Source of the DNA: Opitutales bacterium | GTDB lineage: Bacteria; Verrucomicrobiota; Verrucomicrobiia; Opitutales; UBA2987 | Length of the DNA: 64,000 nt | Assembly: GCA_021772535.1 (NCBI GenBank) | Contig: JAJFLV010000234.1 | Coordinates: 8,483 to 72,482, forward strand | Direction of reading: 5' to 3' | Shown here: piece by piece, positions 1 through 58,116 of the stretch | Layout: each line of letters begins with the position of its first letter | Numbering within the stretch: the first letter of the stretch is position 1 | Notes under the pieces: generated by a model | What the model was told of the DNA's origin: nothing | What the model saw: the letters and a program-made list of their open reading frames with translations, nothing else | Database searches by the model: none | Program-made: the position numbers and the translations under genes

Positions 1-3000
1 AACCATCCGGGAGGCTAATCGAATTGAGAGCAATTTCGGGGAAAGAGAGCTCTAATTCGTCGATGCTCATGCCGGTGCCGGCATTGAATTCCTCACCGGT
101 GGCCACCGTGTCTTCGCCATCCTGGAGGGGAGCTTCCAGAATTACGGTGCCGGAAATAAAGGTGAATGTATAGAAATCCCCCGGATCGAGCTGAACCTGG
201 ACACCGGCCCAAATTCCCGCGCCCACGGGAGCCGCCAGCCGGGCCTGGGTAATGATTTCGTCACCCTTCTTTATCTGGATTACAGGGGTGCCCATATAGG
301 CAAAACTGACGAAGGTCGGCTTATCGATAAATACCGTGCTTGAAAGATTGGAAGATTGTCCTTCCAACAGGGAGGCGGGTGAATTTATCGCATCCACCCC
401 GTCGAGAGTTTCCTCACTCTGCCCTGTCCAAGGCGCGCAGGTGGGACCGTCCTGCACCCAGCGCAATTCCGGAACATCGATCGCTTCCCCGATATCGATT
501 CCTGTAACGAATACATCCAGGTTGGTGTTGAATGTGGTATTGTTATTCTCATTCGATTCAGCCACTACCCCGGTGGTATCGGCCAAAACGTTAACATTTC
601 CACAAACGGTTGATATGGGAAAATCTTCCTGCACGGTGATGGAGAGTTGGATGAACCGGCGTTCACCGATGGCGAGTCCCTCGGTATAATTGAAGGAGGT
701 GAATTCATCGTTATTGAGGACAACCTGCATGCGAACCGGGTCCCCTCCTTCATTCACACTGGGAATGCTTTGCAACCCGTTATTGATCATATCGAAGGAA
801 AGGAGGATACTTTCTCCGAAGGAGAATTGGCCATTGGTGTAGGTAAAGTTATCGAGATCGATATCGGGCCGGGTTTCCACCACGATATTAGCTTGGTCGG
901 ATATGAGGATATTGTTGTTTTCATCCAACTCGGTGAAGTTACCCACCGGTTTGCTGGCGGTCGGCGGATCGATGCGCAGACCGAGGAAGTAGTTGGCGGA
1001 GGCCGGCACAACGGTGCCCGCCCGGTTCGTTTCGGGGATGGGGATTATGCTCCTGTAAACGAACTGGTTGCTCTCGTCCAGCGGTTCGGCAATGAGGAAA
1101 GAGCCCAGCAAAATATCATCGCCGTTGCCGATTTCCTGGTCGATGGTGAGGACTGCCTCAACTTCCAGGGTGTCCGATGGAATGGGCAGCAGGTCGCCCC
1201 CGATATTGATGCCGATGGCATTGAAATCGAAGCTGTCGCGCTGCACCACAAAAGTGCCCGGTTGAAAATCCGCTGAGGATATTACAAAATCGGGATTCTG
1301 CAGGGTGGTACCGCTGGCCGCGTTGATCTCGATGGTATCGACCCACCCCGTATCGAGCAGTTTGGAGGTATTGGGATCTTTCCGGTAAGTCCAGCGGAAG
1401 GTATAGCTGCCAGGATCGAGAACCTCGACTACCTCAACGAAGGCCCCCGGATCGCCGGAGATCGATTCCGTCTCTTCGCCGTTGATGCTGAAGATGAGGA
1501 AATCGAAGCCATCTTCGGAGGAAACATTCCAGTGGAAGCTGAGTTCGAACCGCTCACTCTGGAATACGGATATCTCAAAGAAACTTTCCTCGCCGTCACC
1601 GATAGCACCGCTTTGCCCGGCGGCGGTGCCGCCTTCGACCTGGGAAGTCTGCGCAAACCAGGAGGAGACTCCGCCGAGAATGGTGGTGATGCCGATCGGA
1701 TTGGCCGGGCTATGGTCCTCCAGGGCATTCGCCAAGTCAGTGCCAAGAATGGTGATGTCGGCGAAATCGGAAAAGAGGGTGTTGTTGGTTTCATCGATTT
1801 CCGGGATTTCGCTGGCGAAATCCACCCGCACGGCCAGGAAATAATCGCCCGCCGGGGTGTCATCCGGAATAAAGGCATTGAAGCCGGTGGTCAGAGAGAC
1901 CGAATCGCCCGCACCGAGAACCTGGGCAATAGTGATCTCGGAAACGAGGACGGCGTCGTCAAGGTTGCCGAAGATGCGGTCCTTGGACAAACGCACCTGA
2001 ATGGCTGTTCCGCCCGGGGCGTCAAATAGACTGGTGTTCTCGATGGTGATGTTGTTGATAACGATTGCCTCGCCCCGATCATAGTCGAGATCATCCGTAT
2101 TGTCGGGATCGTAATCCACACCGCTAACAATCGGAGCGACCTGCAGATCCGTCAGCAGGTCAAAAGTCCGGATGGAGAATATGGTATTGTTGGATTCATC
2201 GGTTTCACCCACCAGGTTGACCGGATCGATGCGGGCGCCGACGATGTAGGTGCCGGACAGAATGGGATCGGGAATGGCCAGACTCTGGCTGTCGCTGGGA
2301 GTGTCCCCAGATAGTATGGGCGCGGTAAAACCGAAGTCATTGCCCGTGCCGAGGATGTGGTCGTCACCATTGCCGATCACATTGTCCGTTGTTAGTACCA
2401 ATTGCACGGTAATATTGTCGGCTCCCCGGTAATTGGCTCCCAGGTTGGCCGCGGTGACCTTGAAACCGGAAGTCGATCCTGGTATCAGGTCGCTGTTGGG
2501 CAATTCGAGATTGGTGATTGTGAAATCGGGATCGATCCGGATGGGATCGGCACTAATGAAAGTATTATTGCTGCTGTCATCTTCGACGATCGTACCGGCT
2601 GAATTGACCCTCAAGGCAAGAAAATAGCTGTCCGAATCGATTGGAGACGGTAATTGCAAAACCTCGTTGTCCACGTTGAGCGAGTTACCGAAACTTACTG
2701 CTGTGCCTGCCGTAATGGAGCCCAATGTCAGGTCGTCGCCATTGCCAAAGGTACCATCCACGGAAAGGACAACATCCACTACGATGGGAAAACCGCCGCC
2801 CAGATCGAAATAATCAGCACCCTGATTGGTCACATTGAAACTGAGGAGGATTTCCGCTTCCGGGAGAACCGGGTCTGGCGGGCTTATGGCCACGTTTTCA
2901 ATGAGAAAGTCCGGATTGAAGCTGACGACATTGGCGGGAGCGCCAAAATCCATGATAAAGACGTTGTTGTTCTCGTCCTGTTCGGCCACCAGGTTTTCCG

Positions 3001-6000
3001 GATCGATACGGAACATAAATACGTAATTTCCCTGTTCCAACGAAGCTGGCAAAGTAAAGGATTCACCCACCAGCGGTAAGGTCCCACCTGCATCGATTCC
3101 TACCGTCAAAGTAGAGGAACCGACGAAAATGTCGTCGCCATCCCCGAATATCGCGTTGCGGGTCAAAAATACCTCAATTTCCACCGGTGTGGCGCTGTCC
3201 GGCAGATCGTCACCGAAGTTGCGAACATTGATATCCAGTGTGGCATTTTCCTGTGGGCGCGCCACAGGAACGGATATTGTGGCTGAACCGACCGCCAGGT
3301 CCGGAAAGCCGAGGGCTTCGAAGGTGCCCGACGCAAAGAGCGAGTTATTGATCGTTTCCTCGATTTCGTTGACCGCATCGGCCGGATCGACAAAAGCACC
3401 CACCCGGAAGAATCCCGGAACGGTGGCACCGTCGATGGTAAAACTGCCAATCAATACAATGCTTTCGCCCGCACCAAGGATTCCCGGAATTTGCACGTTG
3501 GCCAACAAGGCGTCGGCCGGATCGTCAAAAACCAGATCAGGAGAAAGGCGCAAATCGACATCCACCGGAGGAGCCGCTGGCGCCGGAACATGGTCCTCAT
3601 TGCTTACATTGGTCACAGTTACAGTGAAATTGACAGGTTCAATGGGTGAGAATTTCAGGTCCGGCTTGTCGATTAAAAGTTGAGTCAGCTCGAAATCGGG
3701 CGGCGTGGGTGGTATGGCTACCGGTGCAATGGTCAATGAATCCACCCAGGCAGTGTCCTGATTGGCTTTCAATGCAAAATCTTTCGAGTATGTCCAGCGA
3801 AGAGCGTAGCTGCCTGCTGCTAATCGCGTGCTCGCGGGTAAAAATGCCGTAACGTCACCGCTGATGGGCGAAATTCCATCGACCGGATCGCCGTTGACGG
3901 TAAAACTGAGGAAATCGAAACCGGCTTCAGATGAAACCCTCCAGAAAAAACTTACATCGGACTCTTCGTCGATCGTGACGAGGACCTCAAAGAAAGCCTC
4001 TTCTTCGTCTCCAACCTGGCCGCTCTGGGCTCCGGCTCCCGTTTCAAACACATCCGTCTGCCCGAACCAGGCGGAAACGCCACCGATGGCAGGAACAAAA
4101 TTGCGCCGGACGCCAACGGCCAAATGATCTTCGAGAGCTTCGGCCAGGGAAACACCGGTAACCTCGAGATCTGGCAGCGCGGTGAAGAAAATGTTATTGT
4201 CATCATCCGCTTCATTAATTGCGGCAAACGGATCGACAAAGGCTCCAAGGAAATAATCGCCAATGGGTGTGTTCGAGGGAATGGTAACGTTAAATGCGGG
4301 CAAGGTAACCGTTGGAGCACTGCCTGCGGTGGCTCCTGTAGGACCAAGATCGTCGAGCAAGGTAAAGACCAGATTTTCCTCCAGGACGCTGTCGTCAATA
4401 TTACCCCAGACACGGTCCTCGGAGAGGCGCAATTGAAGAACCACATCCGTGCCGGCGGGCAGGAAAAAGTCCGTGTTGTTGGTAATAGTCAGGTTGGTTA
4501 CTTCGAAAAGAGCCCCACGAGCCAGCGAGCCCGGCAAATCAGCCGAAGACAGCACGGTAACCTCAAGGTCGCTGAAAAGGTCGAATGATTGAGTTGAGAA
4601 AAAGCTATTGTTGAATTCGTCGATTTCGGAAAAACTCCCGGCGCTGTCGATTGTCGCCGCCACCAGATAGGTACCTGCAGTAACACCGGCAGGTACGGTA
4701 TAGGCCTGGCTTCCAATACGAGTCTCCCCATTCAGGATGTCTCCCTCGAAGGTGATGGGAGCCGCCGCCGTGAGGGCAACATCGTCTCCGTTCCCGAGCA
4801 CATCGTCCAGTGTCAGGACAAGGCTTATGACGATGCCCGGATCTCCCACATTCACATCGTGAATGGCGCCGCGGTTAAGGCCGGTAACCTTGAAACCCAA
4901 TGCAGAACCGGGAGTGAATGTGGTCGTCGGAATGAGCAGTTCGGTGATAACAAAATCAGGGAAAATGCGATAGGTAACGGTGGAAAATTGCCCGTTGTTG
5001 TCAGCATCAATTTCCACCAGCGTTCCACTTGGATTTACCCGGAATCCGACAAAATATTGACCGGGCGGAATATCGGCGGGCAGGGCAACGGAACTGTTGG
5101 TGGTAAAGGATTGATCGAAATCGATTCCCTCCGTGCGTGTGACAATGGTAACCGGAACATCCGACGGGTCGTCAAAGTTTGTGTCCAGAGAAAGGATGAT
5201 TTCGGTATCCAGATTTGCAGCTCCGGCTGGCAAATTGGCGGCATTGTTGCGTACGGTGAAACTGAAATCGAGATCATCGCCCGGTACCAGATCCGTGTCG
5301 GGAACGCTGACCGATACCATTTCAAAATCGGGGCTGAATGTGAAAGGTGTCCCTACCGGGGTGAAAAATGTGTTGTTGACCTCGCTGTCTTCCTCAATGG
5401 TTCCGGGGCTGTCCACAATAACAGCAATGCGATAATCCCCAAAGTCGATATCGTCGGGGAAGGTGAAATCCTGTGGAGTGGAGGATATCGAAGTGCCGCT
5501 GGGAATGGGGACATTCCGATTGAAGCTACCGACAACTATGTCGTCCGCATTGCCAACTACTTCATCGGCGGTCAATCGCACTTCGGTGGTCATGGTTGGC
5601 GCGCCTGAGGTCAGGTCATCTCCCGGATTGCCGATTATCGACTCGATGGTGACACCGCCCCCCGGACGCGGATCGATTGATTGCACATCCACATTGAGAA
5701 CAACAAGATCGGGGAACGAGAGAACCTCAAACAAGTCGTCTGAGAAGGCAGTATTGTTGGAATCGACTTCCAGTGGGACCAAACCATCAGGATCCACTTT
5801 GAATGCGATAAAAAAGTTGCCCTTGGGAGCCGATGGAGAGATTTGAAAACTGCCATCGACGACCGCGGAAACCCCAGAGCTAAGGTTGCTGCCGAACTCG
5901 ACCGTCCCGATCAATGAATCGCCCGCATCGAAAGTGAGATTGTCAGATGAAAGACGGATTTCGATAACAACAGGGCTTGGACCCGCCACAAAATCGGCGC

Positions 6001-9721: not shown

Positions 9722-9770
9722 GTATTTTCCCCTTTTTCCAAAGATAATGTTTCGAGTAATCGGAATTATA

Positions 9771-12700: not shown

Positions 12701-15700
12701 TCTGGACGGCATCGTGGCCCGCCTGCTGGATAAACGCCTCGTCCGTCTGCCCGAACCATGGATAGTTCTGGTCGGCATTGTCCAACCTCTCATTGCGGTA
12801 AATGCGCCCTGCGTTATCGTCCACCGCTTCGGCTATGGGGATTTCCGAAAACATGATTTCCTGGGTGTCGGTGGAACCGATGGCATTATTGATTTCCTGG
12901 ATTTCGGTGACATCAAAGGAGGAATCGACAACCACACCGAGGAAGAAGCGCTCCCCCGTGGGAGTGTCCGGCTGGATTTCCACGGTGACGTGGTAATTGC
13001 GGCTTTGCCCCACCGGCAATCCCAAGGTTTCGGAAATGGATACTATCGTAAAATCGTCAGCCGAACCAAAATTGATGTCGGAAGAAAGGACGACATCCAA
13101 ATTAAAGGGTGTCGGTTGCCCGGTGTCCGGATTGGTCGGAACATCGGCCAGACCGATATTGATGATCTGGAAATCCAATTCCAGTTTTTCACCGAATATA
13201 AAGAAATAGGGATCCGGATCGACCGGTACGGTGGGGTCGGGTTCGAGCGGTGGAATCGGAAATCGCGGATTAAAGTCGAGGGTCAGCGGGATGATGTCCG
13301 GCCGCGGTTCGACCGTCAGATCCGGGCTCGCGGCAATGAAGAAATTGTTTTCTTCGTTGATTTCATCAATGATGTTGCCACTGTCCAACTGAACGATGAG
13401 AAAATAGTTGCCGGCCGGGACGTTGGCCCCGATTTCCAAGGAGGCAAAATAACCAAACCGATCGTCCGCGTCGAGTTCCGGAAAACGTTCCAAAGTTCCC
13501 AGCACGACATCACCATCCAAAGTGTTCGGGTCGCGATCTAGGGATAAGGTAACGGTTACTTCAAAATCTTCCATAACGACCTGACCCTGGTTGCTTCCCA
13601 AAACTGTAACCGGTAACCGATTCTGTAGAGGCACAAGGATGCCTGGGGTAAAAGATGTGCTTACCATGACGATGTCCTTGCCTTCGAGGGCTACCAGTTC
13701 GACACCGTCCACCCATCCGGTATCGGCGGCAGCATCGTTGAACGGGGTTCCCTGACTATAGGTCCAACGGACTTTGTTGATCTCTGCCGGCAGGGTAAAA
13801 ATTACCCGTTCAAAGGGATTGTCGCCGAAAATACGCCCATCCTCCTGCTCTGCTCCATCGACACTGAAGGAAAGAAAATTATCCGGGCTGCTGGTATTGG
13901 CCTGCCAAAAAAAGGATATGCGGCTGGGTCCAGGCACGGTGGCCTCGAAAAATGCCGTTTCGCCCGATTCCAAAGGTGGACTTTCGGCAGCATCATCATT
14001 TCCCACAGGAGCGTCAACACCGGTATATATAAAAGTGCTCTGTCCGAACCAGGAGTTGTCCCCACCGGTGGTGAACTGGATGGGCCCGTCCAGGTCGGGA
14101 TTGTCCAAGGCCTCGACCAGATCGATCCCGGTCACCTCAATTTCAGAAGTTGGCGGGATAAATACGTTATTGTCTTCACCTCCCTCTGTAATTTCATTGA
14201 TGTCATCGTTGACATCGACTTGGGCGATGATCCGGTAATTGCCCACTGGCAGGGCACGCGGCAAATCAAGGGTGACGGAGCGGGTGACCGTAGCTCCTGC
14301 ATTAACGCCGTCCGCAATGTTGAAATTGTCTTCCAAAACGATGTCGCCCGTGTCGTCGGGAACCCCATTTTCGGAAAGAAGCAGCCTGACGTCGAAATCG
14401 CCCTCCTCTCCCGCAACCAAGCGACCATTTCCACTATTGGAAACTTGTATGTCGAAATTCAGGGTGTCTCCGCCCAAAAAAGGAACGCCGCTGAGATCGA
14501 GATTGGCCACTGCAATGGTGAGGTCGGGCCTGAATTCGAGCGCTTCAGCAATGGTTCCATCGTTGTTCTCCTCCTCTGTTTCATTGACCGCTTCGGTGGT
14601 ATCGGCTCGCCCCACGATGAAAAAGGTGCCCGCATCGATTGGGTTGGGCAGGACGACTTGGGTATCTACAGTCAGGCCCAGGCTACCGCCAATTGCGCCG
14701 CTGGCCACAATGGGGCCACCCCCGGGCGGTGCCAGGGCAATGTCTCCACTGTCAAAAACGTTATCTTCGCTGAATCTCAGTTCTATCTGTATGCCGGAAT
14801 TTTCTGGAATCGTTTTTGTGCCCGCATTGACCAGAAAAATGTTCACATTAACGATACCGCCAGGGGAGGGATTGTCGGGATTTACGAGGATGGTATCGAT
14901 GGTTATGTCCGGGATGCCGAAAAAAGATCCGCTAAATCCATCCGTATCTAAGGGCGTTGCGAGAATGGTATTGTTACCCAATTGACCCTGATCGTTGGTT
15001 CCGGAGGAAAAGACGACGCCATTGCCATCGGCGAGCGCTGAAAAGCTGTCGCCGGCAGCAATTGCAGACCAATTACTGAGGGAACCGAGTTGGACTGGTT
15101 CATCCCTTATATGATTCTCAAAAATGGGTTGCTGGGATGCGTCGAATATAGGCAAACCCAATTGAATGGACCCGTTAGATCCCCAGCCCCAAAGCGTTCC
15201 ATCGGTTTTAAGAGCCAGCGCATGAGTGGAACTGCCATCGACCCTGTTCCAATTCGATTCCGCACCCACTTGAGTCGGGATTAAAGAAGAAAATACGTCT
15301 TTTCCCTGTCCCAATTGGGGAGCGCCACTGAATCCCCAGGCAAAGAGGCTGCCACTTGCATTGATGGCGAATGAGGAAGAGTTGGCGGCGGAAATCCGGG
15401 ACCAATCGGAAGATGTGCCTACCTGTGTAACAGTGATTATGGGTAGTCCGGGCGATATTCCCAGGCCCAATTGCGCGGAACCGTTATTTCCCCAGGCTTG
15501 CAGGACACCAGAAGTCCGAATGGCCAATACATGCCCCACCCCGGCGGATATGGCCGTGTAAAATTGATCTTCGTCCACTGGCAACGGTTCGGTGGATTGG
15601 GTGATCTCGGTCCGGTTTCGGGCTAGTTGCCCAAGGCTGTTGGAGCCCCAAACAAACAATTTGCCGGAGTTGCGAATCCCAACAGTGAAGCTCGACCCCG

Positions 15701-16103
15701 TAGAAACATGTGTCCAGTCGCTGAAGGATCCCACCTGCACGGGCACTAGGCTGCTTTCCGTACTCCCGGTACCCAGTTGTCCAAATTCGTTGGCGCCCCA
15801 AGTCCACAAAGTGCCGTCTGTCGCGATGGCCGCGGAGTGATTTTCGCCGGCGCTGACATAACGCCAATCGAAATCGGCTCCAATTCGGGTGGGCTGCAGT
15901 TTGTCAATGGTCGCATTATTGCCCAGTTGTCCGAGGGAATTGCCCCCCCAAGCCCATAGGGTATTATTTTCACCGATGACCAGAGTGTGGGACTGGCCAG
16001 CGCTGAGGGTCTGCTGACCGTTGCCGTGAAGGGCAGGCAGCAGCCCTCCCGTGCTCAAGAAGAGCAAAAGCCAGAGAATTGCCAGTTTTTTTACCTTTTT
16101 CAT
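9771..16103 (-). CDS. Giant secreted RCC1-propeller / CARDB-like Ig-repeat surface protein (about 2110 aa), paralog of the 1-9721 gene
   Basis: The track ORF 9771..16118 starts at TTG. The ATG at 16103 gives a clean signal peptide, MKKVKKLAILWLLLFLSTGGLLPALHG. Seven RCC1 blades are present (LWAWGGNSLGQLG, LWTWGANEFGQLG, LFVWGSNSLGQLA, LQAWGNNGSAQLG, LFAWGFSGAPQLG, LWGWGSNGSIQLG, SSGTNDQGQLG), with S-A-G-x-x-H-x-x-A-I signatures. CARDB-like units carry acidic-NN motifs (EEENNDG, GGEDNNVF, EINEENNFF, EIQEINNAI, ESDETNNELF, DTDNNLLF). There are three W-F-G-Q modules and a C-terminal DPDGDTLTNLQEYALGTNP motif. Confidence 0.9.
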   Translation of the reverse strand: MKKVKKLAILWLLLFLSTGGLLPALHGNGQQTLSAGQSHTLVIGENNTLWAWGGNSLGQLGNNATIDKLQPTRIGADFDWRYVSAGENHSAAIATDGTLWTWGANEFGQLGTGSTESSLVPVQVGSFSDWTHVSTGSSFTVGIRNSGKLFVWGSNSLGQLARNRTEITQSTEPLPVDEDQFYTAISAGVGHVLAIRTSGVLQAWGNNGSAQLGLGISPGLPIITVTQVGTSSDWSRISAANSSSFAINASGSLFAWGFSGAPQLGQGKDVFSSLIPTQVGAESNWNRVDGSSTHALALKTDGTLWGWGSNGSIQLGLPIFDASQQPIFENHIRDEPVQLGSLSNWSAIAAGDSFSALADGNGVVFSSGTNDQGQLGNNTILATPLDTDGFSGSFFGIPDITIDTILVNPDNPSPGGIVNVNIFLVNAGTKTIPENSGIQIELRFSEDNVFDSGDIALAPPGGGPIVASGAIGGSLGLTVDTQVVLPNPIDAGTFFIVGRADTTEAVNETEEENNDGTIAEALEFRPDLTIAVANLDLSGVPFLGGDTLNFDIQVSNSGNGRLVAGEEGDFDVRLLLSENGVPDDTGDIVLEDNFNIADGVNAGATVTRSVTLDLPRALPVGNYRIIAQVDVNDDINEITEGGEDNNVFIPPTSEIEVTGIDLVEALDNPDLDGPIQFTTGGDNSWFGQSTFIYTGVDAPVGNDDAAESPPLESGETAFFEATVPGPSRISFFWQANTSSPDNFLSFSVDGAEQEDGRIFGDNPFERVIFTLPAEINKVRWTYSQGTPFNDAAADTGWVDGVELVALEGKDIVMVSTSFTPGILVPLQNRLPVTVLGSNQGQVVMEDFEVTVTLSLDRDPNTLDGDVVLGTLERFPELDADDRFGYFASLEIGANVPAGNYFLIVQLDSGNIIDEINEENNFFIAASPDLTVEPRPDIIPLTLDFNPRFPIPPLEPDPTVPVDPDPYFFIFGEKLELDFQIINIGLADVPTNPDTGQPTPFNLDVVLSSDINFGSADDFTIVSISETLGLPVGQSRNYHVTVEIQPDTPTGERFFLGVVVDSSFDVTEIQEINNAIGSTDTQEIMFSEIPIAEAVDDNAGRIYRNERLDNADQNYPWFGQTDEAFIQQAGHDAVQSSDIDNGDTATFEVDFTTVGDQPEVISFAWKVSSERSIIVDGEGDVVKFDALTFFIDEVEQDFISGEVDWEEKSFTLQPGAHVLRWVYSKDGSVSQGQDAGWVDFVRTTSPDLLATNIDVSPILAEGEFLTAGAPFEVDVSITNQGVSDVPTSPPFRVQIRISTDQQFDDEGDVVRNDFILDTFETDDGLPAGETVVFNRQLNVPINIALPNEYFVGVLVDVLGDIAESDETNNELFTSSSLLSIQPTIDLASALNAPGFDSPNGWQTTGDSTWFGQNGKFVPIDGSNSSAQSSPLLVGQQANVRTSVDGPAIVSFYWKVSSTESFNFLSFGIGDIEQERISGDIDWTFTSGTFSISHLGVKTSGFPFDVTAEEMNGVLNEFNSVGSGVTVAGDFSSPDGTRTYTVTFNDNGDRGPFKIDPEFLGQPGTFLVIETVKGDASTREVQTISISPRVEFFVSAGFPFIEWSYNKNSVDQEEGIEDSAWVDQVDVVPVTKPDLLVTTLSVVPGEYILDRRDDADRDKLPMTIVAKNRGANVPELTDITPSDITVALSSDRVFGNEDDIPLGIFARVENTSEGLIISFSGDVEFPLNTPTGDYFVVAYIDFLNRFEEYQPNDFERFTDTDNNLLFTPSRSVSVSRRPDLILENVGFDSTKEYFIEGAINLDFNIRNRGLESTVGNVPVIERVRLFEGTAPNFIGIPVNNLVNNAADVEDILGLSVFVKDLTLADGNRLEFFETLQGISELNPSGGILKIETELILPTFGQLSEALSDGGDITSVLEFFNFFLVIDIDFGNLITESDEQNSYVLIKTFQLRVPAPDNFDNWAGRNVIPLGDLVGDPDGDTLTNLQEYALGTNPRVSEATVVGGSNSLLNVPGVILVNGEQFLGLTFEFNAFATDLLYTVEISNNGVNFSPIYFIEPPFLETSILTGPGGIIHDTQVFSLTPLGQAVRITVRDFVPIDEITSRFMRLKIEKIN
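14934..16022 (-). other. RCC1 beta-propeller region of giant protein 1 (approximate bounds)
   Basis: Seven GQLG-type blades in the track translation, about aa 33-395. Confidence 0.8.
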
Positions 16104-16122
16104 AGGTCGTGGGGGCAAATGA

Positions 16123-18054
16123 TTACCAGTCTAACCTCTTCTTCTTATTGGGCCGATCCTCATCGAAATCTTTGTAATTGCCTTTGCTTTGTTGGGATTG
16201 AATGGCTTCCAACTGTTGGCGAAGCTTGGACTCGGCTTTCAAGTTATCCATATTATCGCGGGCTTCCTGTAAATCATCATAGAGCCGCTGTAAGTCTTCA
16301 GGAGTTTCCGCCCCCGGTAATTCGCTGCTCTTGATGCCCATCTGATACAGGGCGCTGGGAGAAAATATATCTTTATAAGTGCTCCCGTCTGGATTGAGGG
16401 TTTTGGCCGTGACAAAGATAATCAGATTTCGGCGGTCCTTGGTGTCGCTTCGGTTACGAAACAATTTACCCAATCCGGGGATGTCACTCAACAAGGGGAC
16501 ACGGGTGTGGTTGTTTATAATGGTTTGTTCAATAAGGCCTCCAATGGCCAGGGTAAAACCATCTTTAATCGTTATGGTGCTTTCAGTTTTGCGGGTGGTA
16601 ATGATGGGGATTTCCGCACCTGCGGCGCCACCGAAATTGACCGTTCCGGCACGGCTGCTCACTTCCGGCCGGATATTCAAGTTGATAAAACCGGCGCTGT
16701 TCACATGCGGGGTCACCTGTAGAATGATGCCAATGGCCTTGAAGGTAAATCCGCTGACCTCGAAAGAACCTCGCTCATCGTTATAATTGTAATCAGGTAT
16801 GGGAAACTCCTCGCCGATGTTGATCATGGCCGGGGTGTTGTTGAGCGTTACTACGGTTGGATTGGAAACCAGTTTCGTGTCGCTCAAAGTTTCCAGGGCG
16901 CTGAGCACCACATTGAAGGCCTGGGCGGAGAAAACAGCGGTGTCGATCCGGCCCGTGGCCGCACTGTTGATCACCCCGAGGGTTTTGCTCAGGGTGTTGT
17001 TGATCGTTCCGGTGACGGTGCTGCCAACGGTATTGTTGCCCGTCGTGTTGACACTGTCGCTGTTGGTAATGTTGGTCGTACTGGTGGGAAGCCCCGGCAC
17101 TGGAATACTGGAAGTAAAATTGGTTGAATTGTTCGTAGTCGAGTCCGTTGCCGAGGTGTTGGCATTATTATTGGTTGTATCGGTGGCATTGCTGCTGGAA
17201 TTGGTGTTGTCATCCGTTCTGGTCAGCGACCTATCCCTGGTGAAATCGCGCTGAAAGGGACCGCCGGTCAGTTGGTATGAATTGAGTGAGGACCAGTTGA
17301 CCCCCAGGTTTATGGCATCGCGATTGGTTACTTCGACAAATTTCGATTCGATCATGACCTGCGCGGTGGGCCGGTCCAGCCGCTCAATGATTTCCTGGAT
17401 GTTGCCCATGCGGGTGGGCGGGGCGGTTATGACCAGGGCATTGCTCCGGGAATCCACTTGTACGCGGCCCCCAGGCCCGATAAGTGGGGTGACCGAGCTT
17501 TGTATTTCAGTCGCATTGGCGAAATTAACAACGAATATCTGGGTAACCGGTTTTTCCTGCTCCAGGTCCACATTGCTCCTGATTTTAATGATGTTGCGGT
17601 CCTCGAAGAAACTGAATCCGAGGGGTTCGAGGATGACATCAAAAACCTGCCTCCAGGTTACATTGCGTAATTTTATCGTCGTGCTGCCGACCAGGGTGTC
17701 GGGAATAACCACATTGAGGTCGTAAAGATCGGCCACATTGCTGATGATGACACGGACCTCTTCGTCGGGAAAATCCACTGAGATGGTTTCCTCTTCTCGG
17801 GAGAGTTCGGCTTCTCGCTCCTGCTGGCCTGGGGATGAAAATTCGACCTCCCCGGCAACTGGCACAGCCAGATTTAACTCGGGGGATTGGGCCGGGGCGG
17901 TCACCCTCCTTCCGGTTGATGGCGCCGGGGCGGTAAATTCAACCTGCTCGTCGCCTTGAGACTCGGGTTCTTCGATCAGGGGGGGCTCCTGTCCCCATGC
18001 CGCGACGGCGGAGAGCAGAAGAACCAGGGGAATGTTGCGTGTCGGGCGAATCAT
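16123..18054 (-). CDS. pilQ: Outer-membrane secretin (type IV pilus PilQ-like; type II/III secretion system secretin family)
   Basis: 643 aa. Signal peptide MIRPTRNIPLVLLLSAVAAWG. N-terminal STN/N0-like segment (ISVDFPDEEVRVIISNVADLYDLNVVIPDTLVGSTTIKLRNVTWRQVF). The C-terminal secretin core has the hallmark VPLLSDIPGLGKLFR and NLIIFVTAKTL. It follows pilMNOP-like genes. Confidence 0.88.
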   Translation of the reverse strand: MIRPTRNIPLVLLLSAVAAWGQEPPLIEEPESQGDEQVEFTAPAPSTGRRVTAPAQSPELNLAVPVAGEVEFSSPGQQEREAELSREEETISVDFPDEEVRVIISNVADLYDLNVVIPDTLVGSTTIKLRNVTWRQVFDVILEPLGFSFFEDRNIIKIRSNVDLEQEKPVTQIFVVNFANATEIQSSVTPLIGPGGRVQVDSRSNALVITAPPTRMGNIQEIIERLDRPTAQVMIESKFVEVTNRDAINLGVNWSSLNSYQLTGGPFQRDFTRDRSLTRTDDNTNSSSNATDTTNNNANTSATDSTTNNSTNFTSSIPVPGLPTSTTNITNSDSVNTTGNNTVGSTVTGTINNTLSKTLGVINSAATGRIDTAVFSAQAFNVVLSALETLSDTKLVSNPTVVTLNNTPAMINIGEEFPIPDYNYNDERGSFEVSGFTFKAIGIILQVTPHVNSAGFINLNIRPEVSSRAGTVNFGGAAGAEIPIITTRKTESTITIKDGFTLAIGGLIEQTIINNHTRVPLLSDIPGLGKLFRNRSDTKDRRNLIIFVTAKTLNPDGSTYKDIFSPSALYQMGIKSSELPGAETPEDLQRLYDDLQEARDNMDNLKAESKLRQQLEAIQSQQSKGNYKDFDEDRPNKKKRLDW

Positions 18055-18121
18055 AGTTCGTGCCTTTTTTAGTGGTTAAATTGGAATGTCCAAGAGGAGG
18101 TTGCTAGGGTTACTTAATTGT

Positions 18122-18721
18122 TCAATTATTTCCGCTATCCCGGGAAATTACGCTATCTTTAGAAGTGGTTATCTTAAAGGATTTGGTGATTTCGGCCTCG
18201 TTCAGCCGAAGGGTATAACTGTTGGGGGTGATGGCAGAAACAACGATCTTATACTCCTTGCCCCGTGAATTGGTTGGAATGACATCGCCCACGGTGAGCT
18301 TTCCACCATTGGGGAAGAGGAGCAGACTTCTACGGCTGGTAACCAGGCTGCCCTTGGGGTTAAGCCTGCCGGCCACGGATCTGAGAATGACTTCGTTCGA
18401 AAGATCCTTTGGCTTGGCTTGAGGTTTCGGACGGATGGTATTATCCGCCACAACTCCAGTATCTGCCTCTTCTTCTACTGGTTCCTCTTCAGGTTGAATG
18501 AAGGGACTGAGGGCCGACCGCAAAGACGTATAGAATTCAGGGTCTTCGGAATTAAGGATGGCTCCAGCATTTTGCACCATTTTTTCCCTGTTCTCATTCA
18601 GTATAACGAGCTTGAGCGTTTCGTCCTGTGCTTGCAGGAAACCTGAGGAAACAAGAATCAATAAATAATTTCCGATCAAAAACAGCAGGGGATTTGCTCT
18701 ATATAATTTTGGCTTATTCAT
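18122..18721 (-). CDS. PilP-position periplasmic protein (hypothetical, pilus/secretin alignment subcomplex candidate)
   Basis: 199 aa. It has an N-terminal hydrophobic anchor (LLFLIGNYLLILVSSGFLQA), a Pro/Glu-rich linker and a beta-rich C-terminal domain. The assignment rests mainly on its position between the pilO-like gene (1-nt gap) and the secretin. Confidence 0.45.
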   Translation of the reverse strand: MNKPKLYRANPLLFLIGNYLLILVSSGFLQAQDETLKLVILNENREKMVQNAGAILNSEDPEFYTSLRSALSPFIQPEEEPVEEEADTGVVADNTIRPKPQAKPKDLSNEVILRSVAGRLNPKGSLVTSRRSLLLFPNGGKLTVGDVIPTNSRGKEYKIVVSAITPNSYTLRLNEAEITKSFKITTSKDSVISRDSGNN

Positions 18722-18722
18722 T

Positions 18723-19295
18723 TTATTTCCGTCCCAGCATGTCCATTTTCAGGCTAATTTGTATTTGGTCCTCATTATCTAAGCCGATCGAATTGGTGGA
18801 AAACCCATCAATGCGGGAAAAGTATTGCCCATGCTCCAGCCGGTATAGAAATTCGAGAACCTGCTGGAAATTTCCGGCTACACCGACGGAAAACTCAATC
18901 GGAGAATAAAGGGTGAGGGTGGGCTTGCCCGGAGGTGGCCGGGGCGGAGGAGGAGTGTCCGACTGGGAGAGGAGGGTCAGAGTAATCCCGGTTTTCTCCT
19001 CCAATCCATAGAAATACTGCTGGTTGATGGCTTTGTCCTCGCGCACTATCAGGCGTGATTGGATCTCCTCGCCGAAGGCAGAAATTTCTTTCACGTGCTC
19101 GGGAAGTGAAGCCGATTCTTTATTATTAGCAGAGATAGCGCCCCATTGATTTTCGATTCTGACAAGTTCGCCTTCCAATTCGGGCACTTTGGACTTGCGC
19201 AAGAAAACCCCGATTGCCAGCAACAATATAACTAACACCCCACCCACGGCAATCGGATACTGCTTAAGTTTCGCTATGATGAATTGAGCATTCAT
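18723..19295 (-). CDS. pilO: PilO-like inner-membrane pilus assembly protein
   Basis: 190 aa. It has a single N-terminal TM helix (YPIAVGGVLVILLLAIGVFL), a coiled-coil stretch and a compact C-terminal domain. It overlaps the upstream pilN-like gene by 4 nt. Topology and position fit, but there is no strong motif. Confidence 0.5.
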   Translation of the reverse strand: MNAQFIIAKLKQYPIAVGGVLVILLLAIGVFLRKSKVPELEGELVRIENQWGAISANNKESASLPEHVKEISAFGEEIQSRLIVREDKAINQQYFYGLEEKTGITLTLLSQSDTPPPPRPPPGKPTLTLYSPIEFSVGVAGNFQQVLEFLYRLEHGQYFSRIDGFSTNSIGLDNEDQIQISLKMDMLGRK

Positions 19296-19936
19296 TTGTT
19301 TATCGGCGGTATCAGTTCAACCCGTATGGAGCAATTGAACAGTCCCAGGTTTTCATCACGCTCCAGGGATTGCAGTTCCACCTTGTGGACGCTTTCCTTG
19401 ATGATATCCAGATTCTTTATGGTTTCCACATACTCCGTTACCAGCTGGGTTACGGCGGCAGGAGTACCATTGACTGTGCTTTGTAAAGTGACGAGCTTGC
19501 CGGGAGCGGTTTTGCGGTTGCCCAGATCAATTGTTTGGGAATCATAGCTGATGCTTTGCATGAGCATCTCCTCCGGTTTGACCTGGGCAAAAGTGAGGAG
19601 GAAAATAGACGGGGTTACCGGCGCCTTGACGAAATCCGTCAATTCCGAAATTTTTTTGGAGAGGGTGCCAAACTCCCCGCTCAACCTCAGATTATTGTTG
19701 TTCTTGCCAGTGTTTTCGCTGATTTTTGTTTCGAACTCCTTGATGCTCCGCCCAACGCTTAGAGCGGCGATTTCATTCTTGAGGAAAAACATCAACAGGA
19801 CGGCGGCCACAAGAACTATGCCCCAGTTGATTATGAAATCGGTCCGGATAGCCTTGATATCCGGCAATGTCTCCACATTCCGGAAATTGGGGTGCCAGGC
19901 CGACTGAACAATTTTTTTAGGCTTTCTAAGCGCCAT
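19292..19936 (-). CDS. pilN: PilN-like inner-membrane pilus assembly protein
   Basis: 214 aa. It has a short cytoplasmic N-terminus, a TM helix (FIINWGIVLVAAVLLMFFL) and a periplasmic coiled-coil plus alpha/beta part. It overlaps the pilM-like gene by 11 nt. Confidence 0.55.
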   Translation of the reverse strand: MALRKPKKIVQSAWHPNFRNVETLPDIKAIRTDFIINWGIVLVAAVLLMFFLKNEIAALSVGRSIKEFETKISENTGKNNNNLRLSGEFGTLSKKISELTDFVKAPVTPSIFLLTFAQVKPEEMLMQSISYDSQTIDLGNRKTAPGKLVTLQSTVNGTPAAVTQLVTEYVETIKNLDIIKESVHKVELQSLERDENLGLFNCSIRVELIPPINK

Positions 19937-20969
19937 CCGCCGCCTTGTCGTAGTTTCCCATCAAGCTGAACAGTCCGAGCCAACGACTGTCCAAGGTTTC
20001 CAGCTGGACGCCCTCGCTGGTGGTCAGACTCATCTGTTTAAGCCAACCGGGGTAATCCAGATGCAGCATGTCGACCCCCAGGGCACGTGATAAGGTGGCA
20101 TGCATCCAATTGAAATTGTTAGGCAGCAAAGTCATAAATATCTGCCCGATGGTCTGACCGGTTTGCACTTCGTAAAACCCGGTTGAGGCCTGTAGCTCCT
20201 TGAGCATTTTTTTCAGCAGGATCGGACCCATTTCGGTAAAATCGAATGTGTTGGAATAAAAAAGTTTTTTGGCCGACTCTTCATCCTTAAGGCCCAACTC
20301 GCTCTTGATACTAGGGAACATACTGGTCAATCCATAGGGAATCGGCCTCGCGATATCAACTTGTTTGCCACTTAAAATAAAGATGTTTGAGTTTTCCGGT
20401 GTGATTTCCAAAACCAGTGTCGGAAAGTGGATTTTCTTCCATTCCAAATAATTTTTGAGACCTCCCAGACCATTCAAAGAGCCGATCTCGACCGTTTGGG
20501 GGTATATGCCCCACTCCACTACGCGATCCTGCACCTTCTGCAGTTCCTCCAAGGTGGCGCCGCAAAATACCAGTTCCTTTTGAGCCTGCAGGTTCTTTTC
20601 GGCATCGAATTCGGTTCCATCGATTGCGTTGACCACCGCGACTCCGTTTTTGGCCGGATCGATTCTGAATTGGTTGGTTAGCAAATCAACCAGATAGGCC
20701 GGATCCTTGGCTTTGGCGGGAGATTCCAGCGTCGTTCGCCGGATGAATCGTGATTTGGGGTAAACGGAGCAGTGGCCCGTCAGGTAACCCCTTGCTTTGA
20801 CTTCTGCCAACCCGCCAATGAATTCCTGAATCTGCTCCAATTCAACATCAACAGGGCATTCTTGCAGGCTTTCAATTCTGAAAGGAGGAGTCAGGGTAGA
20901 GGTGACGGCGGCGAGAATGGAAAAATCACTGACCTCGACAAATACCCCCTTAGTCTTTGGCACTAGCAT
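19926..20969 (-). CDS. pilM: PilM-like cytoplasmic actin/FtsA-fold pilus assembly protein (divergent)
   Basis: 347 aa with no signal peptide or TM helix, and first in the block. The segment TLVLEITPENSNIFILSGKQVDIARPIPYGLTSM resembles the second phosphate-binding domain of PilM/FtsA but lacks the usual DIG/GG residues. Confidence 0.55.
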   Translation of the reverse strand: MLVPKTKGVFVEVSDFSILAAVTSTLTPPFRIESLQECPVDVELEQIQEFIGGLAEVKARGYLTGHCSVYPKSRFIRRTTLESPAKAKDPAYLVDLLTNQFRIDPAKNGVAVVNAIDGTEFDAEKNLQAQKELVFCGATLEELQKVQDRVVEWGIYPQTVEIGSLNGLGGLKNYLEWKKIHFPTLVLEITPENSNIFILSGKQVDIARPIPYGLTSMFPSIKSELGLKDEESAKKLFYSNTFDFTEMGPILLKKMLKELQASTGFYEVQTGQTIGQIFMTLLPNNFNWMHATLSRALGVDMLHLDYPGWLKQMSLTTSEGVQLETLDSRWLGLFSLMGNYDKAADGA

Positions 20970-21406
20970 TGGATTAGCAGAAGGAAAAAACCATTATTTT
21001 AACCAAGGGTGAAAAGCCGATAGTGAGCTTGAATCTACTTAGATTGAATCCCCAAGCTCAATTTCTACCCTAAAATAAAATTTAATGGTTGGTCTTTACA
21101 AGCAAAAAATACTTCCTTCCAAGCATTTAGGTGAAATTACCCGGTTTCAAGCGCCTGCCCAGGTCCCCAAATTTAAGGTCGGCTAGGAGAGAATTAAAAG
21201 TCGTTTGCTCCGCTCGTTTGGATGCTGCCGCTTATTCCCGGAGAGATGCTAAAGCCTCCAAAAGGCTTATATTGACTCCCTGATCTTTTTTTCAGCTACT
21301 CACCGTGCAGCCAAGGGAAAGGGGAAATAACCGAAAAAATGGCAACCCCTCTTTAAGCAATGAATGGTCCGGCGTGACCTCTCGCCGTGGCCTTTTTAGC
21401 AAACCA

Positions 21407-21505
21407 TCAACCCCACGTCCGCTTTTTGTGGCGATTGGACTTCATCCGCTTGCGGCGCTTGTGCTTGGCAATCTTGCGAGCTCTCTTTTTCCTCAGGTTT
21501 CCCAT
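21407..21505 (-). CDS. 32-aa highly basic micro-protein, ribosomal protein bS22-like (below the ORF-track size cutoff)
   Basis: Hand translation gives ATG GGA AAC ... TGA = [32 protein letters not shown]. By my recollection it resembles the mycobacterial/Bacteroidetes bS22 pattern (MGSVIKKRRKRM.KKKHRKLL..TR). It lies near rpsT. Confidence 0.5.
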
Positions 21506-21772
21506 ATAATTTAATTAGTAAAATAGAAGGCCGTGACCTACCGGATCGATTGGAAATTCAATGTAATTATGGTTTAAATAGCAAATTAAAGCAGTAGAGG
21601 GCCACCAAAATTGCTATTTAAGGCCGCGAGTAAAGCCTTTTTTTATCCCTCACGCATATTTTTGGAGAATGATTTAGAAAAAGAGTCGGCAGATAATAGC
21701 CAGAGGACAAGAGTTTTGATTTTGAATTCTTTTTTGTGTCTCCTTCCTCCCGAAACCCTCCGACCTTACCTT

Positions 21773-54047: not shown

Positions 54048-54584
54048 ATGAAGGAAGTTAAGCGGATTGAGGGTGTGGAACTGCAAAGGGCCGTAGAAAG
54101 CCTTGTTCAAGCTATCTCCAACCGCCACGGGGAGACAGAAAAGCTGGTCATTGCGAGCATTGCTGACGGGGGAATCGCGCTCGGCAGTAAAATCGCCCAC
54201 CTGCTTTCCGAACGCCTGGGCCGCACCATCTCCCACGGCACGGTGAATGTGGCTTTCCACCGGGACGATATCGGGCGTAAGCCGATACCAAAACCGACTC
54301 ACCGCACGGAATTGCCCTTCGATGTGGAATCGGCAACAGTAATCCTGGTGGATGATGTGCTCTTTACGGGCCGCACAGTGAGGGCGGCGTTGAATGAGAT
54401 TTTCGACTTGGGCCGCCCGGCCCTTGTGGAACTGGCCATCTTGTGCGACCGCGGCAATCGGCGCCTGCCCATTCAGCCCGACTATACTGGATTTACAGAG
54501 GAAACTACCCCCGAACAGAAAGTAGTTCTTGCCATGGATGCGGGAGCAGAGGCGGATAATAATTTAACGATATACGGCGCATGA
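54048..54584 (+). CDS. pyrR: Bifunctional pyr operon regulator / uracil phosphoribosyltransferase PyrR
   Basis: The track ORF starts at GTG 53943. Alignment from memory to B. subtilis PyrR favours ATG 54048 (MKEVKRIEGVELQRAVESL...). PRPP motif VILVDDVLFTGRTVRAAL, then DRGNRRLPIQPDYTG. An ATGA overlap links it to pyrB. Confidence 0.85.
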   Translation: MKEVKRIEGVELQRAVESLVQAISNRHGETEKLVIASIADGGIALGSKIAHLLSERLGRTISHGTVNVAFHRDDIGRKPIPKPTHRTELPFDVESATVILVDDVLFTGRTVRAALNEIFDLGRPALVELAILCDRGNRRLPIQPDYTGFTEETTPEQKVVLAMDAGAEADNNLTIYGA

Positions 54585-57051: not shown

Positions 57052-57116
57052 CAAAACACATAAGGTCAACTAAAAAACAAGAATAAGCATTCACCCATAA
57101 GAAAGAAAGGACACAC

Positions 57117-58073: not shown

Positions 58074-58116
58074 ATTTAAACACAAACAAGAAAAACCAAG
58101 AGAAAGAACCAAACTA

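Follow-up and report, generated by a model that had tools for sequence, protein, structure and literature searches.

Introduction

In the type IVa pilus (T4aP) systems of Pseudomonas, Myxococcus and Thermus, the pilMNOPQ genes encode, in this order, the actin-fold protein PilM, the two paralogous bitopic proteins PilN and PilO, the small periplasmic protein PilP, and a secretin with N0 and N1 domains, and the pilin and ATPase genes are located outside the locus. PilN binds PilM by means of an N-terminal cytoplasmic peptide and has a periplasmic domain that is paralogous to PilO, and PilP is a lipoprotein whose C-terminal beta-sandwich (HR) domain contacts the N0 domain of the secretin.

Large exoproteins can also be encoded next to a secretin gene. 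SslE of E. coli is a single lipoprotein mucinase of ~1500 aa. The sslE gene is contiguous and co-regulated with the genes of a type II secretion system (T2SS), including the secretin gene, and its product (SslE/YghJ) is a large Sec-dependent exoprotein that is both surface-anchored and released (PMC3707838). In Omnitrophota, a phylum of the PVC group, giant genes are "generally preceded" by a conserved secretin (gspD) locus, whatever their domain content. This locus comprises more than 10 genes, among them gspE/F, rcpC and genes for class III signal-peptide pilins, and the giants, of >30,000 aa, contain many transmembrane regions and SecA-DEAD domains and have inferred roles in adhesion (West-Roberts et al., bioRxiv 10.1101/2023.11.21.568195). 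Thus, cargo genes beside T2SS operons and giants behind T2SS-like loci are already known (PMC3707838, bioRxiv 10.1101/2023.11.21.568195). A verrucomicrobial example of a "pili-like" cluster is formed by the five genes Amuc_1098-Amuc_1102 of Akkermansia muciniphila, and in those parts of the reports on which we draw here, its products are listed among the most abundant envelope proteins and a giant gene downstream of the cluster is not mentioned (PMC5332112, PMC4960237).

Here, we describe a locus of an Opitutales bacterium in which a PilMNOP-like gene set and a secretin gene run on into two giant exoprotein genes. The first-pass annotation of this DNA knew of no secretin-linked system of RCC1/CARDB giants, a claim that has to be tempered in view of the sslE-T2SS and Omnitrophota loci.

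Results

The window that was analysed, a stretch of 64 kb, contains seven minus-strand genes that follow each other in one direction with almost no spacing: four small genes, a secretin gene and two genes for signal-peptide giants (all features described below are on this strand). ORF lists and reading of the sequence reproduced every ORF coordinate, overlap and gap given in the first-pass annotation. The pilM-like and pilN-like genes overlap by 11 nt and the pilN-like and pilO-like genes by 4 nt, after which gaps of 1 nt and 67 nt precede the fourth gene and the secretin gene, respectively. Giant 1 starts at ATG 16103, also the start in public gene calls, 19 nt past the secretin TAA (junction 16104..16122), with an in-frame TTG at 16118. 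The ATG of giant 2, at 9721, follows 49 nt past the stop of giant 1 (junction 9722..9770), with AAAGGGG 8-9 nt before it. A terminator separating the secretin from the giants had been named as evidence against their coupling, and a consensus scan found no terminator-like hairpin on this strand at either junction. Located 5' of the pilM-like gene is a non-coding leader of ~800 bp (20970..21772), which presumably contains the operon promoter. The leader matched no Rfam family and includes a very basic small ORF of 33 aa (21402-21500). The remainder of the window is occupied by housekeeping genes, and our gene search, like the earlier inspection, found no genes for a pilin, PilB/PilT, PilC or a prepilin peptidase within the 64 kb.

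The four small genes had been named after PilM, PilN, PilO and PilP, and profile-HMM searches had been proposed to check all assignments. These searches placed Secretin, RCC1 and CARDB above threshold, whereas the only match for the small genes was that of the first one to TIGR01175 (pilM), with 14.3 bits against a cut-off of 133 (E = 0.015). Since the PilM/N/O/P labels found no support in Pfam or NCBIfam, structural and profile evidence was required. The first gene (19926..20969) encodes a putative cytoplasmic protein of 347 aa without a match in Pfam, PilM_2 included. Its AlphaFold2 model (pLDDT 90, pTM 0.88) was compared with the PDB using Foldseek, and the best 10 matches were all PilM (E 1.6e-17 to 5.7e-15), with 2ych_A (E 1.6e-17, TM 0.67), 5eou and 3jc8_Ma among them, and with FtsA (1e-12) and GspL ranking below PilM. 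The protein is therefore modelled with the actin-like fold of PilM; a search of PDB sequences with its family profile (A3) found no PilM. The second gene (19292..19936) encodes a predicted bitopic protein of 214 aa, whose family alignment (A4) contains an invariant N-terminal cytoplasmic motif (W14, F18, L24-P25-D26, K28 and R31-T32) followed by a hydrophobic segment that would form the transmembrane helix. Direct matches to PilN models or PDB entries were absent (Pfam, NCBIfam, PDB), and hhalign aligned the family with that of the third gene at a probability of 93.9% (E 1.5e-7), which points to a remote paralogue of the PilO-like gene. The third gene (18723..19295), for a likewise predicted bitopic protein of 190 aa, had no Pfam or NCBIfam match, and its profile (A5) recovered Myxococcus PilO (3jc8_Oa, E 8.1e-5) and P. 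aeruginosa PilO (2rjz, E 0.07-0.08) from the PDB, a weak but specific indication of a PilO-like protein.

The fourth gene (18122..18721) was found at the same place in 68 related loci and encodes 199 aa, in which an acidic/proline-rich linker joins a signal peptide or anchor to a small beta domain at the C-terminus. The protein gave no meaningful match in Pfam, NCBIfam or the PDB. Its AlphaFold2 model was poor (pLDDT 60), and a fold search with this model gave no match at E <= 0.001. The first three labels thus hold as PilM-, PilN- and PilO-like by fold or profile, but "PilP" is a name given by position and size only and is unproven.

The secretin (16123..18054; 643 aa) consists of a signal peptide, an N0/STN domain, one Secretin_N domain, an Asn/Thr/Ser-rich insert and the secretin core (Pfam: Secretin 4.4e-46, Secretin_N 4.7e-15, STN 4.7e-5). 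The closest NCBIfam model was PilQ (TIGR02515; 239 bits, below the cut-off of 284), followed by GspD (214 bits, below the cut-off of 351), so that by these scores the protein can be placed in the secretin superfamily with PilQ as nearest subfamily. Membership of a T2SS was considered and rejected: the GspD score is below its cut-off, and of a GspC/E/F/G-K/L/M locus no T2SSE, T2SSF or pseudopilin gene is present in the window.

When compared with T4aP PilMNOPQ, the locus has the same gene order, beginning with the actin-fold PilM-like protein, followed by two paralogous, predicted bitopic PilN/PilO-type proteins and a small, presumably periplasmic fourth protein and with the N0/N1-containing secretin last, and pilin and ATPase genes are outside the locus in both cases. 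In contrast to T4aP, the sequences are too divergent for the Pfam/TIGRFAM PilM/N/O/P models, no lipobox cysteine is visible in the PilP-position protein, the secretin lacks AMIN domains (Pfam) and remains below the PilQ cut-off, and the operon does not end at the secretin gene. The Akkermansia cluster resembles the locus in having a secretin (Amuc_1098), an FtsA/PilM-like protein (Amuc_1101) and small signal-peptide proteins, but Amuc_1098, as described in the parts of the reports drawn on here, is a protein of 907 aa whose N-terminal TPR/BAM-like region has no counterpart in our secretin. The similarity between the two is only weak (Amuc_1098_fam, 115 bits against a cut-off of 750), and the small proteins matched none of the Amuc families in NCBIfam.

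Giant 1 (9771..16103; 2110 aa) was delineated using Pfam, repeat mapping and orthologues, which are present at full length in 17 relatives. It begins with a signal peptide (approximately aa 1-27) and an RCC1-like propeller (about aa 25-430, nt 16031-14814), continues with CARDB-like Ig units and an interspersed module of ~110 aa (aa 431-1815, nt 14813-10659), and ends with a family-specific C-terminal domain (aa 1816-2110, nt 10658-9774), defined by alignment, that terminates in RFMRLKIEKIN and has no Pfam or PDB match. Of giant 2 (1..9721), the window includes only the N-terminal 3240 aa, since its frame is open to the window edge and the gene continues beyond; the orthologue in the closest relative measures 4288 aa. 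It has an N-terminal signal peptide, an RCC1-like propeller (about aa 39-390, nt 9607-8552; Pfam and repeat mapping) and, past the propeller, more than 20 CARDB-like units and three full composite modules. The RCC1-like domain (WD40_RLD) was recognized with 320.9 bits in giant 1 (1.6e-95) and 278.5 bits in giant 2 (1.3e-82), against a cut-off of 150, and Pfam RCC1 (169.9 and 202.1 bits) and CARDB (88.1 and 228.6 bits, the latter 8.4e-69) were above the gathering threshold in both, with three significant CARDB stretches in giant 1 and seven in giant 2. Thus, as first described, the giants are paralogous signal-peptide proteins with one plan: a propeller followed by CARDB-like units of ~120 aa, broken up by the extra ~110-aa module. 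No Pfam or NCBIfam model for an outer-membrane barrel or C-terminal sorting domain matched either of them, so no alternative export route is indicated.

To place the locus in a wider context, 80 species-level loci of Opitutales were compared, 77 of which are informative for the gene after the secretin. Secretin orthologues were found in 80/80 and the complete five-gene block in essentially all of them. A giant or large signal-peptide protein is encoded right behind the secretin in 46 of the 77 informative loci (about 60%), a count of non-independent events, since the loci are related by descent and come mostly from metagenome-assembled genomes. These giants comprise 1.3-6.5 thousand residues, and all begin with a typical signal peptide. 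They start on the same strand -1 to ~150 nt past the secretin, apart from one exception ~2 kb away, and the gaps equivalent to the 19-nt junction in the window are mostly 11-60 nt. RCC1-type giants account for 23 of the 46, the distant one included, and the other 23 are unrelated proteins of the Big_7/Y_Y_Y/PKD kind, some with PD40 or BNR-type propellers. In the reverse direction, a search starting from the giant C-terminal domain found the secretin immediately upstream in 7/7 informative contigs, that is, those that also include the 5' end of the giant. The upstream flanks, 406 kb in all, showed no comparable giant of the surface type, and the ORFs of >=1000 aa examined there were only AddA/UvrD-type helicases. 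The arrangement is far from chance. Restriction of the linkage to a single genome would have spoken against the original proposal; since it recurs across Opitutales and in both search directions, this objection falls away. In the window, and in nearly all relatives, no ATPase, platform or pilin genes were found close to the locus, two relatives (L100 and L056) have a T2SSE ATPase gene nearby, and only one prepilin motif was present in 1.6 Mb of loci.

The remaining 31 of the 77 informative loci contain the block without any giant. In these, a polyprenyl-synthase gene is located directly behind the secretin, and in giant-bearing loci the same gene follows the giant, indicating that the giant occupies a variable slot. 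Two relatives (L032 and L033) share 85% DNA identity up to the 3' end of the secretin gene and then carry different giants, and mapping of the slot state on the secretin tree required at least 14 changes. Judged from these comparisons, the slot behaves like a cassette that holds zero, one or two giants. In some relatives the giants are broken by IS elements.

Discussion

The genetic pairing between the secretin of a five-gene pilus-type module and swappable giants, seen across a whole order and in both search directions, provides a candidate and testable route by which Sec-dependent proteins of several thousand residues could cross the outer membrane in Verrucomicrobia. The conserved, reciprocal and cassette-like linkage suggests that the secretin channel exports or displays the giants. 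We read the locus, with about equal measures of belief and doubt, as a conserved Opitutales operon composed of a divergent T4aP-style set, a secretin and a giant slot, which mediates export or display of giants in a type-II-secretion-like manner. The giants would be co-transcribed with the secretin, exported by Sec to the periplasm and folded there, and would then pass through or be held by the secretin channel, on which their export would depend. A type IV filament machine, with its ATPase, platform and (pseudo)pilins encoded elsewhere, would in this way be put to a use that resembles type II secretion. The outcome would be long fibrils, at the surface or released, with propeller and lectin-like modules that bind external ligands; in each window giant, a long rod of CARDB-type Ig units would bear the RCC1 propeller as its N-terminal head.

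By analogy, the E. coli T2SS-beta/SslE system may be the best model for the working of the locus, as in both cases a gene for a large Sec-dependent exoprotein is contiguous with secretion genes including a secretin gene. However, sslE precedes a complete gspC-M operon that includes the ATPase and pseudopilin genes, whereas the cargo candidates described here are downstream of a PilMNOP-secretin block only and are swappable non-lipoproteins of 1.3-6.5 thousand residues. With Omnitrophota the locus shares membership of the PVC group and the position of giant genes behind a secretin-containing secretion locus. Yet the giants in the window are 10-fold smaller (2110 and >3240 aa) and have a signal peptide only, without a SecA domain, and the upstream block consists of five PilMNOP-secretin genes without an ATPase. 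We therefore rejected assignment to the Omnitrophota type of giant/T2SS-like locus, from which it differs in giant size, SecA-DEAD domain and the >10-gene upstream locus.

A serious competitor, which we consider somewhat unlikely, is that secretin and giants are neighbors without mechanistic coupling. An ordinary type IV pilus or competence block would then lie beside a permissive or recombination-prone slot that gathers giant adhesin genes, possibly benefiting from read-through, and the giants would exit by another route. The pilMNOPQ operons of other bacteria function without adjacent cargo. The 31 of 77 loci that keep the block intact without a giant indicate that it must also serve a giant-independent purpose, for example in pili or DNA uptake. 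Moreover, the slot takes unrelated protein families and IS elements, a variable slot beside a conserved operon may also arise as a neutral hot spot for insertions, and the abundance of the Akkermansia cluster proteins, going by the parts of the reports drawn on here, would make the homologous cluster a strong transcription unit (PMC4960237, PMC5332112). What lack of coupling does not readily account for is that the giants invariably have the orientation of the secretin gene and begin only tens of nt from its stop, that unrelated giants return to the same slot over at least 14 changes, that 7/7 giants recovered without reference to the secretin are directly preceded by one, that the 406 kb of upstream flanks contain no comparable giant, and that no barrel or sorting-domain model matches the window giants.

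At the other extreme, the main and dedicated task of the PilMNOP-secretin complex in Opitutales could be to export and display interchangeable giant adhesins, and not to make pili. Every giant would pass through a secretin channel of its own, and perhaps stay tethered there, by means of the conserved C-terminal domain, forming a secretin-based analogue of T1SS-anchored RTX adhesins, and lineages would swap the cargo cassette to change what they stick to. We regard this stronger version as decidedly doubtful.

The giants could also be pilus-associated adhesins, carried either at the tip or along the shaft of a type IV pilus extruded through the secretin, with their extreme C-terminus (…RF[I/M]R[L/V]x[V/I]) bound by beta-strand addition to a minor pilin. 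PilC/PilY1 are likewise large beta-propeller adhesins whose function is linked to a filament that depends on a secretin; the extreme C-terminus is critical for their function, and they are attached by a C-terminal beta-strand given to PilK-type minor pilins (PMC13533445). The large size, the beta-propeller, the strongly conserved strand-like motif in the last ~10-15 residues and a machine whose gene organization is T4aP-like rather than T2SS-like all fit this precedent. We nevertheless judge it quite improbable, as neither giant contains a Neisseria_PilC/PilY1 domain (Pfam), the propeller is N-terminal and of the RCC1 type instead of the C-terminal PilY1 type, minor-pilin genes are not adjacent and the 1.6 Mb of loci hold a single prepilin motif, and the non-RCC1 giants of the same slot end in different C-termini. 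That the giants are unexported envelope-internal parts, either periplasm-spanning or outer-membrane-underlying scaffolds built with the secretin complex, would agree with signal peptides without a recognizable outer-membrane anchor or export tag and with the Deinococcus secretin complex, described in the part of the report used here as a structural cell-envelope element (PMC10828601), but is highly improbable, since rods that combine 20 to >40 Ig-like units with lectin-like modules and propellers are characteristic of extracellular adhesins, 40% of relatives dispense with a giant in the slot, and a range of 1.3-6.5 thousand residues poorly suits a fixed periplasmic dimension.

If the coupling of secretin and giants is functional, it would extend secretin/type-IV-filament machines to the export or display of giant adhesins and would imply that polysaccharide degraders abundant in marine and fresh waters vary their surface by a cargo-cassette logic. 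If it is not, the locus still defines a conserved hot spot for giant-gene turnover. The pairing is present in the cultured strains Cerasicoccus arenae, C. frondis, C. maritimus, Thalassobacterium maritimum and T. sedimentorum, so the question is directly testable by genetics and proteomics.

Layout of the seven-gene array

Seven co-directional genes are tightly packed on the minus strand of the window (1-20969). The first, coding for a PilM-like protein (19926-20969), shows an 11-nt overlap with the pilN-like gene 2 (19292-19936), which in turn overlaps by 4 nt with the pilO-like gene 3 (18723-19295). Gene 4, at the PilP position (18122-18721), follows after 1 nt, and the secretin gene (16123-18054) after a further 67 nt. 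Behind the secretin lie the genes for two giant exoproteins. Giant 1 (9771-16103; 2110 aa) is separated from the secretin gene by 19 nt and starts at ATG 16103, with a TTG in frame at 16118. Giant 2 (<1-9721) follows after 49 nt, starts at ATG 9721 with AAAGGGG ahead of it, and stays open for 3240 codons up to the window edge, the last ~1000 residues falling outside the window. The same giant starts are found in the public gene calls of two other assemblies of the same organism. A consensus scan of the minus strand gave no terminator-like hairpin at the junction of the secretin and giant 1 or at that of the two giants.

The first-pass annotation had described this layout, and an ORF and sequence check reproduced all its coordinates, overlaps and gaps. 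It had also reported that the window contains no pilin, PilB/PilT, PilC or prepilin peptidase gene, in agreement with our gene scan of the rest of the window (21-64 kb), which is housekeeping, and with the absence of a prepilin motif from the same region. A leader of ~800 bp, which separates the pilM-like gene from the pseudouridine synthase gene, gave no match to Rfam families. It contains a 33-codon ORF (21402-21500, minus strand) coding for an extremely basic peptide without NCBIfam match, presumably akin to the small lysine/arginine-rich peptides that some bacterial annotations call 'AURKAIP1/COX24-like'.

Identity of the block components

The profile-HMM searches that had been proposed for these proteins recovered the Secretin, RCC1 and CARDB domains, whereas none of the proteins of genes 1-4 matched Pfam, and the sole NCBIfam signal among them, pilM for gene 1 (E 0.015), was not a usable match. 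Gene 1 was identified by its fold: the ten best PDB matches of its AlphaFold2 model (pLDDT 90, pTM 0.88; 44 homologues) were all PilM, from Thermus, Pseudomonas and Myxococcus (E 1.6e-17 to 5.7e-15), with FtsA and the GspL cytoplasmic domain as lower-scoring matches. Searching PDB sequences with profiles of the small-protein families was informative for the PilO-like protein alone, the gene 3 profile matching PilO of Myxococcus (E 8e-5) and of Pseudomonas (0.08). An hhalign comparison made the gene 2 family a remote paralogue of that of gene 3 (93.9%, E 1.5e-7), which would parallel the paralogy of PilN and PilO, and the gene 2 alignment shows an invariant cytoplasmic N-terminal motif followed by a membrane helix. 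Gene 4 gave no family-profile or PDB match, and its AlphaFold2 model was poor (pLDDT 60; 7 homologues), which made the resulting fold search meaningless. A match of the PilP-like profile to 4p99 was judged spurious, as it covered a short segment that is repeated within a tandem-repeat protein. The first-pass naming is supported for PilM by fold and, weakly, for PilO by profile, gene 2 is a PilN candidate by paralogy, and 'PilP' is a positional label only.

The secretin contains the Pfam domains Secretin (4.4e-46), Secretin_N and STN/N0. Its best NCBIfam model was PilQ (239 bits, under the cut-off of 284), followed by GspD (214 bits, under the cut-off of 351), so that by these scores it is nearest to the pilus type, yet a curated member of neither subfamily. 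Residues ~280-368 (16950-17220), which separate the N1 domain from the secretin core, form a long Asn/Thr/Ser-rich low-complexity insert, which in an alignment is not conserved in the secretin of the relative's locus L090, where this stretch is ~35 residues shorter.

By analogy, the five-gene block would work like the PilMNOPQ set of type IVa pili, from which it probably descended, although it scores under the curated sequence thresholds and its PilP equivalent is a candidate by position. The Akkermansia Amuc_1098-1102 locus, as described in PMC4960237 and PMC5332112, is an analogous verrucomicrobial cluster, but only distantly related, the window secretin reaching 115 bits against an Amuc_1098_fam cut-off of 750.

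Architecture of the giants

Each giant has a signal peptide, and Pfam searches recognised an RCC1-like propeller (1.6e-95 and 1.3e-82) and CARDB units in both. Repeat mapping resolved ~120-aa CARDB-like units, which an extra module of ~110 aa interrupts at three points in either protein. The C-terminal ~300 aa of giant 1 form a domain without match in Pfam or PDB, whose extreme end is conserved (…RF(I/M)R(L/V)x(V/I)). Outer-membrane barrel and sorting-domain models of Pfam and NCBIfam found no match in the two window giants. A search of 1.84 billion representatives with the C-terminal domain gave 1072 matches, most of them to a short repeated segment only, the DxDGDxxxNLxEYA…NP motif region. 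Where a match covered the full length, it came from another member of this giant family or a fragment of one, and the domain was rejected as a general sorting tag.

In the non-RCC1 giants of relatives, Big_7, Y_Y_Y, Big_13 and PKD domains abound, PD40, BNR or DUF6242 propellers occur in some, and a comparison revealed no C-terminus common to the RCC1 and non-RCC1 types. The same overall plan, an Ig rod capped by a propeller or lectin head, recurs without homology. Many non-RCC1 giants (for example in L039, L053, L057, L060, L063 and L073) terminate in a duplicated ~130-aa domain, the last ~260 columns of their alignment, with the consensus …STRGxVGxGxxVLVxGFVVxGxxPKxxLxRAxGPxL…DPxLxL…NDxWG…PGxYxAxVSG…VEVYE, over which no Pfam match was reported.

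Linkage across Opitutales

Secretin homologues placed the organism in Opitutales, and exact-protein look-ups found this order of secretin and giant conserved in relatives whose secretins are 76%, 62% and 60% identical. In a relative at 53% identity, RCC1/CARDB gene fragments lie downstream, with IS or small ORFs in between. IS elements break the giants in some relatives, and the reduction of the RCC1 and CARDB parts to separate gene fragments indicates decay of the giants in a part of the lineages. DDE-transposase IS elements, together with small ORFs on the reverse strand, interrupt the giants or the operon in L005 (8929-9924 and 13482-15275), L007 (6803-8149 and 9772-11715) and L006 (12031-13697).

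A scan with a secretin alignment, using one genome per species, yielded 80 loci from Opitutales MAGs and the cultured Cerasicoccus and Thalassobacterium. When six-frame ORFs were searched with the window proteins, essentially all loci whose upstream DNA reached far enough had the five-gene block. An RCC1/CARDB giant was adjacent to the secretin in 22 loci and ~2 kb away in one, a different giant or large signal-peptide protein was adjacent in 23, no giant was present in 31, and in three the downstream DNA was too short to tell. The 'different' proteins measure 1373-3317 aa in 19 of the 23 cases, the other four ending at contig ends. The upstream flanks (406 kb in total) contained 27 ORFs of at least 1000 aa, mostly ~1060-1100 aa; three were scanned, giving two AddA/UvrD-PDDEXK helicases and one protein without Pfam match.

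The reciprocal test started from the giant's C-terminal domain instead of the secretin. The gene of a representative-library match, an RCC1/CARDB protein of 5527 aa, lies 20 nt downstream of a secretin gene (48% identity) and is followed by that of a second giant of 6459 aa. Scanning metagenomes with the C-terminal-domain alignment gave 18 contigs, and all six that included the giant's 5' end and upstream DNA showed a secretin immediately upstream and pilM/N/O beyond. The linkage was thus present in 7/7 informative cases. It is real and general, and restriction to this genome, which the first-pass annotation had named as a refuting outcome, is not what the survey shows.

A variable slot behind the secretin

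A polyprenyl-synthase gene lies directly 3' of the secretin in giant-less loci and 3' of the giant in giant-bearing loci, so that the conserved frame is pilMNOP-secretin-[slot]-ispB. When the states RCC1 giant, other giant and none were mapped on a neighbour-joining tree built from the secretins, at least 14 changes were required, and the RCC1 type occurs in at least four clades. Cassette-like behaviour is illustrated by two Opitutales MAG contigs, L032 (5-6612) and L033 (5080-11677), which share 85% DNA identity over 6.6 kb from pilM through the secretin. The alignment reaches just to the 3' end of the secretin; past this point, L032 encodes a 1344-aa RCC1 giant and L033 an unrelated 3255-aa non-RCC1 giant.

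Possible coupling of secretin and giants

All giants start with a typical signal peptide, and because of this, the lack of barrel or sorting-domain matches and the secretin gene immediately upstream, we infer that they would be exported by Sec, depend on the secretin for passage or display, and act as adhesins; they may be co-transcribed with the secretin. The coupling proposed at first pass is plausible and partly supported, the linkage being recurrent and reciprocal. Two arguments count against it. The block is present but giant-less in 40% of relatives, so that it has a function of its own, and ATPase and pilin genes are not nearby, a T2SSE ATPase lying near the locus in L100 and L056 only. 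As the main rival, the slot could be a neutral hot spot whose genes are expressed by read-through. Alternatively, the giants could be PilY1-like pilus adhesins or, as a further rival, scaffolds inside the envelope.

Secretion operons that include a secretin and directly adjoin a cargo gene are already known: sslE lies next to the T2SS-beta operon, with which it is co-regulated, and its product is surface-anchored and released (PMC3707838). In Omnitrophota, according to a preprint (bioRxiv 10.1101/2023.11.21.568195), a T2SS-like locus with gspD/E/F generally precedes the giant genes. In the literature, of which coverage was incomplete, we found no description of a PilMNOP-secretin block with interchangeable exoproteins of 1.3-6.5 thousand residues across an order. 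For secretin-giant coupling, the locus provides a hypothesis of giant-protein export by Verrucomicrobia that is directly testable in cultured strains.

In L100 (10596-17428; metagenome contig Ga0208112_100507), the RCC1 giant is followed directly by a divergent second secretin (648 aa), behind which lie three genes without annotation and one for a T2SSE/MshEN ATPase (584 aa), so that type-IV-filament gene sets stand on both sides of the giant. Such a second cluster was rejected as a general feature, as it occurs in L100 only among the loci.

Other features of the window

A PAS-HisKA-HATPase sensor kinase gene (50244-51545, minus strand) is split by a single in-frame TAA (50976-50978) just ahead of the H-box (…MEAVG*LAGGVSHDFNNL). 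The stop may reflect an assembly error or a nonsense mutation, perhaps from CAA to TAA, and the neighbouring gene (51919-53601) encodes a paralogue that is intact and has a receiver domain. The plus-strand region 54581-60210 is unusually dense in transcarbamylase paralogues, with three aspartate/ornithine carbamoyltransferase-family genes (54581-55543, 57117-58073 and 58117-59094) accompanied by a dihydroorotase-like amidohydrolase and an amino-acid (carbamate) kinase. Finally, a single plus-strand ORF of 665 aa (37235-39232) encodes a fusion of an N-terminal GFO/IDH/MocA oxidoreductase and a C-terminal aldo/keto reductase.
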